In this document: positions 11,873-24,084 of the stretch, one piece after another
Layout of the letters: every line of letters begins with the position of its first letter
Numbering within the stretch: position 1 is the first letter of the stretch
The notes under the pieces: model-generated
Told to the model about the DNA's origin: nothing
What the model saw: only the letters and a program-made list of their open reading frames with translations
Database searches by the model: none
Translations under genes and position numbers: made by a program
Assembly: GCA_964016885.1 (NCBI GenBank)
Contig: OZ024744.1
Location: forward strand, 108,810,001 to 108,874,000
Reading direction: 5' to 3'
Source: Eledone cirrhosa
Taxonomy: Eukaryota
DNA: 64,000 nucleotides

Positions 11873-12312
11873 AATAAACGAAGCTAAATTTTAAACATTT
11901 GACTTTTTATTTTACTTTATTTTACATTACTCCGTAGTAACCAAACCAACCTGCGCACTTCGTCGAGTGCTCCAGCCTGCATACTGAGGTGTTGGTTTAC
12001 AACCAACATATACTCAAAATCTGTATGTATATATATATATGCACACACACACACACACACACACACACACACACACACACACACACACACACACACACAC
12101 ACACACACACACACACACACACACACACACACACACACACACACACATATATGAATATTAGATATATGAAAGTTAGATAAACAGACAGACAGATACATAG
12201 ATAGATAGATATATTTCTTTATTTGCCACAGGGGCGTACAAACATGGGACATTACAAGACGTGACGGCGGGGGTTTTACATAAAAATAACTTTAACATTA
12301 ATAAATAACATT

Positions 12313-12417
12313 AAACTATAATAAAATAAACTATAATAAAATAAACTATAATAAAATAAACTATAATAAAATAAACTATAATAAAATAAACTATAATAAA
12401 ATAAACTATAATAAAAT
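12313..12417. repeat. 15-bp tandem repeat (AAACTATAATAAAAT)x7 inside the 3' UTR of copy A
   Basis: Direct reading. Not expanded in sister copy D (~47030-47060). Confidence 0.9.
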
Positions 12418-12547
12418 AACAATTGAAATCCCCAGTAGGGGGGACGTTACTGCAGAGTTGTTTTACACCCCGTAGATAGAACAACCCTCAACACCAGGAA
12501 CACGTTTTGTAGGTGTTCCTGTCTTCCCTCTGTTTATCTTCCTCAAC

Positions 12548-15500
12548 CTACAGGTTTATATACAGAGAAGGCCCATTCACTCGGGCGATTTTTGCCACAT
12601 TCACCCACCTTTCAGCGAATTTACTGGGGTGTAGCACCTCTCTCTCCACTCTCACCTTCCTTCTGAAGTGATATTTAAAGAAGGTGATAAGGTGTTGTCC
12701 GGAGAGAAAGGTGTTTGCCCTCAGTCCTTTTAACCTCGTCCACCATATTACCTCTTTCGTCATAGTCCCCAGACAGAGGAAAGCCGCCTCTCCTTCGTTC
12801 TTAAATGAAGGCGGCGGGGTGATCCTCCCGATGGACTCGACTGACAACCGGATGCGTCCTACACGTGACAGCAGCTGTTCGACATAATTCCACAGGTCGG
12901 TCACCCCTGGGCACTGAACAATTGCGTGCAGAACGGTTTCGATGTCCTGCTCGCATCTTGGACAGGTCCTTTTGGCAGGATCTCTGCCAGAGCGTCCGTG
13001 CCTGTAGATTTTGTCTCGAACTGGTAGAGCTCCTCGGTAGCACTGCCAGGCCAGAGACCTCTGGAAGTTGTCCATAGGCCCTGGACGGAAAGTCCTCCCG
13101 AACAGACTGGTCAGTTCGTCCTCCTCGAGAACGTCGTCGCACTTATCCTCCACTAATCCCCTATAGAATGTCGAAGTGGAGTCTCCGCTGATTGCCGTTT
13201 CCGCTTGGTAGAAGGCTGTGAGCGCCTGTAGGCACTCAAGGTGCCAGGCACCCATTTTCGGTCTTCGCTTGACCCAGGACTGCAGCTCTGTTAATGAGAC
13301 GAGTTGTGGAAGAACTCGTCTCACAAACGACAGCCACACCGGTTCACCGGTCAGGAATACCTGGAGATGGCGTAGCCTTAGCGCATGTTTTCGCATCATC
13401 AGCCACGGCATGCCCAGCCCTCCGTTAGAAGGGTGTTGACAGCAGATGGATCTCCTCACCAATGGAGCCTGTTTCTTCCAGAGGAACTTGAAGAGTAAGC
13501 GTTCCATTTTGGTAAGGTATTCGCGGGGGCAAGGCACGACTATCAAGCGGTAGTAGATGACGGAAGCTATGTAAGTGTTCGCCAACTCCGCTCGACCTTT
13601 CAAGGAGAGTTTGCACTCAGCCCACTTCTGGGTGAGTGCAAACACCTTTGCTGTGACCTCGTTCCAGTTCTTGTCCACCTGGAGGTCTGGACCGAACCAG
13701 ACCCCGAGCAATTTCACCGGTCCTTCCGTCCAGCGTCCAACGACACTGTCGGAATGCATGGGTTTGCCTCTCCATGTGCCGAGTTGCAAACCGACAGACT
13801 TGTTTGGGTTTAGTCTTGCTCGTGTCAACGTTTCGTATTCCTGTAATAGGTTGCCGATTACCCTGATTTCCGAGGTTTTCGACACCATTACGGTTATGTC
13901 GTCAGCATAGGCTGACGCTGCTTTCCGCAGTTCTGGTTCGATCGGGATGCCATGCAACAGCTCCAACTTCCGCAGTAACGACTCGAGAGTCAGTACATAC
14001 AGAATGGAGGAGAGAGGGCATCCCTGATAGATGGAACGTATGATTTGGAATGCCTCTGATAGGTAGCCATTCACCTTGACTGCCGAGCAGATGCTGGTGT
14101 GCATGGCAGCGATCAGGCCTCTGAAGATGGGACCGAAGCCGGCCGCCTTGAGAACTGCTTCCAAGTATTGATGGTCGACCCTATCAAATGCCTTAGACTA
14201 AACTAAATTGATCAGAGCCCCACCGAAGCCAGGTATACACCCTACTCTCTCTATGATGTATAGCATGATGTGGAGGTTGTCGTGTATGGACCTGGTCGGG
14301 ATTGCACACGTTTGGGCTTCCCCTACCAGGTTCTCGACGACAAGCGCCAGCCTTGCTGCTAACACCTTGGCCACAATCTTTAACTCTGTGTTAAGCAGAG
14401 TTATGGGCCTGAAATTGCTTATCTCATCCCCCTTGTTCTCATCTTTCTTGATCAACGTTACTACGCATCTGCCTACAGAACTGGGAATCCCCCCGTTCTG
14501 CTGCCAGTTGCAGTATACCGCTTCGGACACACCAGAGAACAAGTCTGGCATGCCTATGTAAAACTCATAGGGTAGACCATCTAAACCGGGTGATTTGCGT
14601 TTCCCGCAGCGGCCTAGGGCATCTTATATTTCGCTCGCTGTGATCGGCCTTTCGCAGCTCTCTGCATCCGTGCTCGAGAGTCGCGGTACGCCGTCGATCT
14701 AAGAGCTGAAGTCCATCACCTCGCTCGATGTACCGCTTTGCCCGAACAGTTGTGCAAAATGCTGCTGGAAGGCCGTGCACATCTGCCTGGATTCAAGTAT
14801 AATGCGTCCATCTTTGTCTTGCAAAGACCGAATTGTGGATTTGTTGCCACTTTTCACCTCTACCACTCGGGCCCAGCTAACAGCTTTGACTCCCTCGTTT
14901 CTTAGAGCACGTGTTCTACTTCTGACAATACAACCTTCGCGTTTCACGTTGAAGAACTGGTCTAGTGCCGTTCTCGCCGCTAACACGTCAGCTGTACTGC
15001 CATTCCTAAGTGCCTCTTCTATTTTAGCTACCAGTTCCTTTTCAGTTTTATTTTTTTCTAAAGCTACTTCCTTGCTAAATGCTATCGATTCTATTTTAAT
15101 TGCTCTCTTGAGAGAGCACCACCACCTGTTGTTGACGATCTCCCCCATCAACTGGCACTTAACTAAGGTGCTAATCCGTTTACTGTAGGCCTTACGCGCC
15201 GGGAGCGACATGTTTAGCTTCCAGTATCCGGGTCTCTGTCGATGTGTTCTATCAAGGTTGACTACGCAGGTGACTAATTTGTGGTCTGAATAGGCAACCA
15301 TGTACATTTGTGGACAGCTTAATGTGTCCTTATCATTGTGCCTAATTAAAAATCTATCTAAATACGATCTAGAAGACCCAGTGCGGTTGCTCCATGTCCA
15401 CAGTGGTGCACTTGGGAAGTCTAGTCGATATCTATTAGCCAGTTGGAATTGGCTGATGAGATTTTTGAGGCTATTACACTCCACTCTATTATCACAAGCT

Positions 15501-15960
15501 CCTACATAGTCCCAACGTGCGCCTAAGATACCATTCCAGTCCCCTGCTAACACTAAGGAGCGAGACGTTCCCAGCAATGGCTCCAGACGCTTGAAGAACT
15601 CTGGTCGCGATGTCATAGTCGGGGCATATACGGCCACCAGTCTGAAAGCTCCACCTTCATTACCATTCACGTCCAAGACCACCAGGCTGCCCTCCGGGTC
15701 CAAATGAATCGTCTGCATTTTGAGATCCAAGTTTTTTCAAAACAGAACAGCAACTCCCCCTCCACCTCCTGACTGAGAGTGAGATGCGTAGATCGCAAAA
15801 TCAACGATCATGGGGTTATCTGCTGCTTGTCGTGAATCCTGGACTCGGTGATGGCTATCACATCTATACAATGTGACCTGAGATCATTTAAAAGCTGGCC
15901 CTGTTTCCAGGACATGCCTAGGCCACGTACATTCAAACATCCAACTTGTATAGTCGCCAT
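12548..15960 (-). pseudogene. ORF2 of copy A: apurinic endonuclease, reverse transcriptase, CCHC (disrupted)
   Basis: APE motifs VYAPT, LAGDWN, SYLDRF, SDH. RT motifs FRPITLLNTELKI, KAFDRVDH, QGCPLS, YADD, LLGV. C-terminal CPRC-x8-H-x4-C. Split into several ORFs by stops and frameshifts. Confidence 0.93.
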
Positions 15961-16000
15961 GTTGGTGAAGAAGAGTTAAGGAGAGAAAAGGCAGGAGCAT

Positions 16001-22468: not shown

Positions 22469-22870
22469 GTTATTTAGTTTGTAAAATTTGAAATTTTAAA
22501 ACAATTTTTAAAATAAAATGTTCGCCCCTAAAGGGGCGAAAATGGGATTACCACCCAGCTGACAATTCAACTTGGGGGTTAATCTACAAAATAATATGTT
22601 TTTTCAAACAATTTGTTCTGTTTTCGTATATAAATTTACAAAAAATCTTACCGGCGGTGTTTCACGCATCAGACAGAAAGAGAGATAGATAGATAGGTAG
22701 ATAGCTAGATAGATAGATAGATAGATAGATAGATAGATAGATAGATAGATAGATAGAGAGAGAGAGAGAGAGAGAGAGAGAGAGAGAGAGAGAGAGAGAG
22801 AGAGAGAGAGAGAGAGAGAGAGAGAGAGAGAGAGAGAGGGAGAGAGAGAGGTCGATATATAGACAGATAG

Positions 22871-22917
22871 ATATCTTTCGTTATTTGCCATAAGGGCGCA
22901 CAAGAAAAGGGGACAAT
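22871..22917 (-). mobile_element. ~45-bp 3'-terminal fragment of the Tx1 family
   Basis: TTATTTGCCATAAGGGCGCACAAGAAAAGGGGACAAT matches the 3' end of copy B and is flanked on both sides by GATA repeats. Confidence 0.8.
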
Positions 22918-22938
22918 ATAGATAGATAGATAGATAGA

Positions 22939-23420
22939 TATATTTCTTTATTAGCCACAAGGGCGCACAAGAAAAGGGGACAATACAAAGATATGCCGGG
23001 GATTTTACATACTGTCGTGTAAAAATATAAAACAAACAATTATAACAATCAGGAGGAGGCACCACAAATGTGTTGTTTAATACCCCGTCGATAGAACAAG
23101 CTTCAACTTCAGGAGCGTGTTGTGCAAGTGCTCCTTTCTTCCTTTTGTTCTCTTCTTCAACCTACAGGCTTATATACAGAGAAGGCCCAATCACTCGGGC
23201 CATTTTTGCCACATTCACCCACCTTTTAGTAAATTTACTGGAGTGCAGTGTCTCTCTCTCTCTTTCTCTCCACTCTGATTCTCCTTCTAAAGTGGTACCT
23301 AAAGAAGGGAATGAGTTGTTGTTCCGGAGAGAAAGGCATCTGTCCTCAGTCCTCTCAATCTCGTCCACCATATAACCCCTTTCACCATAGCCACTATACA
23401 GGGGAAAACCGCCTCTCTTT
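22939..23420 (-). mobile_element. Tx1 copy C, 5'-truncated (ORF2 end plus 3' UTR)
   Basis: Encodes ...RWVNVAKMARVIGPSLYISL*. The 5' break abuts AGATAGATAG at 23421-23430. Confidence 0.92.
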
Positions 23421-24084
23421 AGATAGATAGAAATTCTATGCAGCCGCGTTTCTGTTTTGCTTTCTTTTTTTCTCTTGTTATTTTCATTTTCGCTGGTATT
23501 ACTTTCTTCCATTCTTTCATTACGTCTATCTTTACGTCACACTATCTTCTCTCTTCATTTATTCCTACCTCTCTTTACTCGTATTCTTTCCATTCTTTTC
23601 TTCCTCTATTATTTCCTCTCGCTCTTCTCTTTTACCTTGTCTTCCATTCTTTCTTTTCCTTTCCTCCTTCCTCCCGTCACTCTTTCTTTAGCCCCTCCCT
23701 CCACCTTCTAACTACAAACTTCTGAATAGACAATAGTAAATTTATATATTGTATAGATTCTATCGTATAACACACTCATATATATATATACGCATAGAGC
23801 TATACACACATACATATACACACACACACTATTATATACACCTGCATATGCGTTTGAAAGAGAGAGAAAGAGAGAGAAAGAGAGGGAGAGAGAGAGAGAG
23901 AGAGAGAGAGAGAGAGAGAGAGAATGTGTGTATATATTTGTGTGTATATATATATGTATGCGTATTTATGTATATATGTATGTATATATATATATATGTA
24001 TACACACACACACACACACATATATATATATATATATATATATATATATATATAAGATCAAAAGATGGTTAAAAGAGTTCCATG

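Follow-up and report, generated by a model that had tools for sequence, protein, structure and literature searches.

A Tx1-like retrotransposon family seated in (TATC)n/(GATA)n microsatellites of Eledone cirrhosa and stacked head-to-tail

The window analysed here, a stretch of 64,000 nucleotides of the Eledone cirrhosa genome (assembly GCA_964016885.1, contig OZ024744.1, positions 108,810,001 to 108,874,000), contains between 12 and 23 kb four pieces of a retrotransposon, namely copies A, B and C and a short fragment, all on the minus strand. Each piece ends in AATAA(A/C)GAAA followed by two bases and then TATC, and TATC also adjoins each 5′ end (17331-17343, 22671-22755, 22921-22940 and 23421-23431). 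Why should one family lie repeatedly, in one orientation, in one microsatellite? An earlier reading of the letters alone (the sequence-only reading) had described four same-orientation copies with this shared 3′ end at about these places, and had proposed that their family targets the repeat and regenerates it with each insertion. Our analysis confirms the arrangement and the contact of every 5′ end with TATC, except that copy B is 5′-complete, so that its TATC cannot be counted for targeting. The pieces are decayed copies of a non-LTR retrotransposon (LTR, long terminal repeat) with two open reading frames (ORFs) and an apurinic/apyrimidinic-type (APE) endonuclease, and no intact ORF2 was found in the window. 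We consider it quite probable that this Tx1-type family sits in (TATC)n/(GATA)n and stacks head-to-tail, likely through an APE endonuclease that nicks the GATA strand to prime reverse transcription. Its site, strand, repeat phase, target duplication and stacking are observed directly in the copies.

TATC repeats at the junctions of genomic copies

Genome searches used 3′-end queries from subfamilies B, A and D, devoid of 5′ flank, and the best 40 each of 2,024, 868, 1,608 and 563 candidates were scored. Removal of three window copies and one duplicate from these 160 hits left 156 copies, of which the long ones were extended. Their 5′ ends were placed by alignment to natural full-length copies followed by a check of the flank, and 101 were classed as truncated, 46 as 5′-complete and 9 as unresolved. 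For twenty-six ends the class was assigned manually. Fourteen of these went to the truncated class, the junction being shifted in 6, and 5, including 3 chimeras, to the 5′-complete class; the remainder, together with two edge cases, make up the 9 unresolved. Targeting can be judged from truncated copies only, since a full-length copy brings an (ATCT)n head of its own. Full-length copies were rejected as targeting evidence on account of L202, which lies at a non-repeat site with a duplication of ~19 bp and yet has its own (CTAT)n head; this one clear case points to transcripts beginning within the upstream repeat and to full-length insertions as a source of additional target.

A TATC-phase 8-mer lies within 30 bp upstream of the 5′ break in 69 of the 101 truncated copies (68%; B 27/43, A 24/34, D 18/24), and in 69 of 113 when the 9 unresolved and 3 chimeric copies are counted as misses. 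The antisense 8-mer was found in one of the 101 (L119, with (GATA)n instead of (TATC)n), CTT flanks in none, and (TC)n only in scattered cases. As a background we used 30-bp windows in 20 fixed 10-kb genome stretches, where the TATC-phase 8-mer occurred in 557 of 199,420 windows on one strand (0.28%) and in 310 of 199,419 on the other (0.16%); this sample is very microsatellite-rich, with TATC tracts rarer than AT, AG and AC tracts. A position-ordered replicate of 30 loci, reduced to 18 by 11 that ran off the locus and one copy of the ATT family described below, had TATC upstream in 10 of the 18, one of which was shared with the first sample.

On the other side of the element, the 22-base 3′-end pattern has 12,784 exact matches genome-wide, and NN-TATCTAT follows in a fixed phase in 9,778 of them (76%). 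Among the 156 copies, TATCT stands at +2 after the 3′ end in 144; a TATC 8-mer is missing there in 33, which argues against an obligatory self-made tail. TATC at both junctions far exceeds the 20% flank criterion for target specificity given in PMC4494074 (literature is cited throughout from the passages accessible to us). The sequence-only reading had proposed this tabulation of both flanks and had named a majority of truncated copies with non-TATC 5′ flanks and ordinary target-site duplications as evidence against itself; we found the majority at TATC and duplications that start there. TATC specificity is strong but leaky.

Candidate duplications of at least 9 bases flank 68 of the 101 truncated copies, mostly inside pure repeat and hence uninformative. 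Requiring at least two off-repeat bases on both sides left 20 informative duplications of 12-21 bp (median 15), which start at the T two bases after GAAA in 13 cases and one or two bases earlier in the other 7. Upstream of the duplication the repeat continues in phase (T at −4 in 14, A at −3 in 15, T at −2 in 14 and C at −1 in 12 of the 20), so TATC was in the target before insertion; in their RNA, subfamilies A and D have GAAA-GA/TA at this upstream place.

A same-strand family neighbour lies within 200 bp of 68 of the 147 resolved copies and an opposite-strand neighbour of none, as would follow if the target is strand-specific and every insertion duplicates it. At L008 and L240, stacked copies are each flanked by their own duplication. 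Stacks might also arise by tandem duplication or recombination between copies, their TATC spacers being self-made tails, and some loci do carry internal duplications, deletions and inter-subfamily chimeras. This origin is nevertheless very unlikely: stacked copies are only 70-80% alike, as members of different subfamilies, and have different break points; single copies are flanked by duplications with unique bases; and when the 23 truncated copies seated on the 3′ end of another copy are set aside, 49 of the other 78 still adjoin TATC. The regeneration of targets proposed by the sequence-only reading is supported in a refined form, through the 12-21 bp duplication and the repeat head of full-length copies and not through an obligatory self-made tail.

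An ATT sister family and the placement of the element

Random genome stretches also contained sister elements with the same 3′ end and (ATT)n flanks, which we located by a longer 3′ stretch and by pattern search. Among 23 truncated copies, a small control that includes two unresolved ends and two near-duplicates, none had TATC, 9 had ATT, 3 CTT and 1 AAT, and ATT was present in 18 of 18 full-length copies. ATT flanks were found in none of the 101 truncated copies of the TATC family, and the families differ (Fisher p 3e-10 and 6e-8). The ATT family is young, with 7,554 exact 3′ ends, many full-length copies, some in tandem, and open ORF2s at L140, L308, L314, L316 and L317. Among A, B and D the endonucleases share 79-81% identity; that of the ATT family has 62-63% identity to them and differs in three surface loops; the reverse transcriptases (RTs) of the two families are 77-78% identical.

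The existence of a sister family on a different repeat bears on the possibility that insertion is near random and that copies merely persist in repeat-rich, low-recombination or harmless regions. The microsatellite richness of the genome would favour such persistence, and passive build-up was put forward to explain Waldo-A/B near CA repeats in Drosophila (PMC3812793). The strand bias of 69 to 1, the fixed 3′ phase, the duplications starting from TATC and the rarity of TATC tracts relative to AT, AG and AC tracts all speak against passive accumulation, which is already largely refuted and to which we give hardly any credence.

Several points weigh against targeting as we propose it. Besides the 26 ends classed or moved by hand and the small size of the ATT control, 32 of the 101 truncated copies lack the strict 8-mer, some of them lying at degenerate TATC or TA-repeat sites, and roughly a dozen have no target-like flank. 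Two perfect units within the 12 bases upstream accompany only 5 of the 20 informative duplications, and the target may be a short motif rather than a long microsatellite; about four of the 20 are of low complexity and possibly due to chance. Empty alleles and orthologous empty sites did not turn up in the contigs compared: at the young copy L186, those of two other organisms and of two runs from the same sample gave no joint exactly skipping the insertion, and those of four other organisms did not reach across the unique flank of the second stack of the window; both outcomes are neutral. Related sequence is present in the contigs from these four organisms, and in two of them GATA loose ends stand at a 3′ junction, which hints weakly at a target used also outside this species.

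Full-length copies measure ~5.8 kb and show the hallmarks of non-LTR elements, with a common 3′ end, variable 5′ truncation (98 distinct breakpoints among the 101 truncated copies) and no LTRs. ORF2, ~1,140 amino acids long in the TATC family, combines an RT (PF00078) with an N-terminal APE endonuclease (PF03372) that also matches L1 endonuclease structures and conserves the APE catalytic motifs. ORF1 matched no Pfam family and has a single CX2CX4HX4C motif, present in 7 of 8 other copies scanned. Two ORFs, the first with a CCHC zinc knuckle, characterize the Tx1 clade. Median divergence from the subfamily majority, biased low by hit ranking, is 1.2% for D, 2.5% for A and 3.0% for B.

We built an RT tree of 27 rows, in which subfamilies are represented by majority sequences from 7-26 natural copies each. 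The three TATC subfamilies form one clade (100/100), joined by the ATT-flanked family and an Argonauta protein (100/99) and next by Sepia and unnamed proteins (100/100). This cephalopod branch groups with teleost TX1-named proteins and two unnamed rows (95/91), apart from plant-type rows; the teleost names (“Transposon TX1 ... protein”) come from automatic annotation. One row, BAC82605.1 from Tetraodon, is presumably a Kibi/Koshi deposit. The tree, which has neither curated Tx1 references (Tx1L, Keno, Dewa, Mutsu, Kibi, Koshi) nor vertebrate L1 RT among its rows, supports, short of proof, the Tx1 affinity that the sequence-only reading had assigned. Among named proteins, the nearest come from Argonauta (62-66%) and Sepia (46%), which places the host among the octopods; P0004, P0021 and Sepia P0080 are relatives at 40-45% identity. 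Matches in the ESM Atlas fall in generic RT clusters only, and a protein search of JGI metagenomes revealed no loci of relatives. Two pattern matches to relatives in JGI metagenomes were rejected as chance.

Several loci show other rearrangements or neighbours. In L062, L070 and L098, full-length copies of chimeric make-up, the 3′ part is from B and the 5′ part from another subfamily, and a similar switch region in L070 and L098 hints at a mobile recombinant. A short 5′ inversion was seen in L107 and internal ~145-bp tandem repeats in L040. An older ATT-flanked group (L241-L270), left out of the counts, behaves the same by eye, and many of its copies occupy the (ATT)n terminus of a different, very abundant repeat, which we take to resemble a short interspersed element. 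Two other remnants of long interspersed elements with RT (RVT_1 match) lie at L132:3400-5350 and 7300-9400; from their motifs we assume them to be R4/Dong-like.

Copies and repeats in the window

The coordinates of the pieces and their repeats are given in Table 1.

Table 1. Element copies, junction repeats and related loci (window coordinates unless a locus is named).
Feature	Coordinates	Strand	Basis
Degenerate (TATC)n/(TGTC)n tract flanking copy A on its 3′ side	12160..12211	-	sequence
Copy A, subfamily A, 5′-truncated inside ORF1 at reference position ~721	12212..17338	-	
ORF2 of A with stops and frameshifts: APE endonuclease, RT, zf-RVT	12548..15960	-	Pfam PF03372, PF00078, PF13966
A/B junction, about two TATC units	17331..17343	-	
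Copy B, subfamily B, 5′-complete	17344..22670	-	92-93% to full-length natural B copy, reaches reference position 1
ORF2 of B, broken; endonuclease domain still open	17579..20592	-	PF03372, E 1e-12
CCHC zinc knuckle CX2CX4HX4C, ORF1 remnant of B	21485..21526	-	sequence reading
(TATC)n tract merging into pyrimidine head common to full-length B copies	22671..22755	-	
(GA)n tract separating copy B from 45-bp fragment	22756..22850	.	
45-bp 3′-terminal fragment, B-like	22874..22918	-	
(TATC)5 separating fragment from copy C	22921..22940	-	
Copy C, 5′-truncated, B-related (87-88%)	22941..23420	-	
TCTATCTATCT at 5′ break of copy C	23421..23431	-	
Second stack: five 5′-truncated copies, five subfamilies, joined by TATC or TA repeats	46925..48940	-	
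ATT-family loci	L140:3929-9943; L132:1-2817; L301-L352		(ATT)n flanks, sometimes (CTT)n

The terminal GAAA has its last A at 12214 in copy A, 17346 in B, 22876 in the fragment and 22943 in C. Copies A and B belong to subfamilies that are 75-80% identical. Copy A aligns with 93% identity to a full-length natural A copy, and its 5′ break is placed within 17331-17338, the exact point being blurred by microhomology: the A reference aligns about 8 bases into TATC, which makes part of the A/B junction microhomology. The junction sequence TATCTATCTAT is present also at the 3′ end of copy A, a pattern expected from duplication. The Pfam matches to ORF2 of A were found on its separate pieces and its start codon was set by sequence reading; the 3′ untranslated region of this copy contains a 15-bp tandem array or expansion at 12312-12419. 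Two internal deletions, one of ~74 bp and one of ~340-360 bp, interrupt copy B; the RT is hit at ~18927, and ~22272 is the other position. An inverted repeat of ~50 bp, a possible RNA hairpin, lies near the ORF1 start of this copy (22360-22430). The 45-bp fragment ends in AATAACGAAA, with a short degenerate TATC run and then (GA)n as its 3′ flank.

The second stack, absent from the sequence-only reading, has 3′ ends at 46935, 47219, 47436, 47732 and 48591, and one of its copies (47730-48428) matches the young subfamily D with 99% identity. Two satellites share the window: a 17-bp unit in ~352 copies (94% matches) at 1-5974, which extends past the window start, and an 18-kb array of a 32-bp unit (94-95% matches) at 28384-46340, which stops ~600 bp before the second stack.

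Target choice, known systems and implications

Target-primed reverse transcription is an established mechanism. Applied to this family, a first nick would fall near 5′-GATA^GATA on the bottom strand, within a few bases, as the RNA end may pair with the target; the 3′ end seen in the copies is AATAAAGAAA plus two bases, then TATC in fixed phase. The nicked GATA strand would prime reverse transcription. A second nick would fall on the TATC strand, 12-21 bp further along, and filling of the gap would produce the duplication. Insertion would leave a usable same-strand target at both junctions, full-length copies would contribute their (ATCT)n head as extra target, and later copies of any subfamily could land next to earlier ones. 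The head probably derives from a transcription start in the upstream repeat and may help 5′ end joining. The interpretation of the sequence-only reading is thus supported overall, with cleavage of the GATA/TATC repeat by the endonuclease as a predicted step.

For Tx1L of Xenopus, the target is set by the endonuclease, which nicks its own target almost exclusively (PMC1950540). One can alternatively imagine a loosely specific endonuclease that cuts TA-rich steps, the site being chosen by the last bases of the RNA, read through into UAUC repeats, which must pair with the nicked GATA strand. TATCT at +2 in 144 of 156 copies, even at non-microsatellite sites, is the pattern expected from pairing over 5-7 bases; most off-target sites are rich in TA, few positions distinguish the hairpin loops of the TATC and ATT endonucleases, and loop grafts onto the L1 endonuclease transferred specificity uncleanly (PMC1950540). 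Against such priming-led choice, the repeat stays in phase upstream of the duplication, beyond any RNA-end pairing, the 33 copies without a 3′ TATC 8-mer show no obligatory tail, and the TA/TC state after GAAA in subfamily B gives no signal of inheritance on a tree (17 changes; 63% of 300 shuffles had as few), although this tree is perhaps too star-like to reveal one. We regard priming-led choice, the main alternative, as unlikely, though with a real chance of being correct, and endonuclease specificity and RNA-DNA pairing may act together.

Waldo and Mino belong to the R1 clade of non-LTR elements. Together with Dong and Togen they are, like the present family, microsatellite specialists, on (ACAY)n for Waldo, (AC)n for Mino, (TAA)n for Dong and (TG)n for Togen (PMC3812793, PMC4640811). 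The repeat of Dong is of the same class as that of the ATT sister family, but these elements belong to other clades and none is reported on GATA/TATC in the passages cited. Closer counterparts are the teleost Tx1 elements Kibi on (TC)n and Koshi on (TTC)n and a crocodilian Tx1 on (TTCC)n/(TTTC)n (PMC4494074), which likewise are APE-type, Tx1-like elements in a microsatellite. The family described here differs from Kibi and Koshi in that its flanks are TATC, not (TC)n or (TTC)n, in its separate cephalopod branch (100/100) with RTs only ~37-41% identical to the teleost proteins, in an ORF2 of ~1,140 versus ~1,300 amino acids and in its at least 12,000 3′ ends. Tx1L, whose target lies inside Tx1D (PMC1950540), shares the APE endonuclease and RT, and its endonuclease-set integration is our model; it nicks one complex site, whereas the TATC family uses a 4-bp repeat leakily, and it lies outside our RT tree. 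SINEU-3 copies in tandem also enclose a duplication between them, a pattern interpreted as successive insertions into a regenerated target, but that element is non-autonomous and its target is a Mariner element (PMC4494074).

We did not find a GATA/TATC-targeting family in the accessible passages of the open full-text literature (which also included PMC10294476, PMC8869645, PMC5035012 and PMC9115989), where the targets named are TC, TTC, TTCC/TTTC, ACAY, AC, TAA and TG; this search does not extend to Repbase or Dfam, to subscription journals, or to the figures and supplements of PMC4494074, whose Fig. 3 of Tx1 targets could name a GATA-type one. In Octopus vulgaris, 13 recently active L1-Tx1 families are reported in a text whose accessible part does not contain the word “target” (PMC13282606). 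We lean towards regarding the GATA/TATC target as undocumented so far.

The mechanism itself is not new; the target is new to the literature found, and GATA/TATC joins a short list of microsatellite-specific retrotransposons, none of which we found described in molluscs. A 2013 review considered microsatellite targeting by APE-type elements not well understood (PMC3812793). The TATC and ATT families are a natural pair for testing target choice and, with endonucleases 62-63% and RTs 77-78% identical, offer a closer comparison than Tx1L, R1Bm and L1. More tentatively, and with slightly more doubt than confidence, we propose that an undescribed octopod Tx1 radiation has split the microsatellite niche, (TATC)n versus (ATT)n, by few endonuclease changes, and that tens of thousands of copies in self-renewing stacks seed and reshape GATA repeats genome-wide. 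If so, the intact copies of the ATT family would make the target switch directly testable. The TATC family may confound GATA microsatellite markers, and both families, with at least 12,784 and 7,554 exact 3′ ends, may shape the repeat content of cephalopod genomes.

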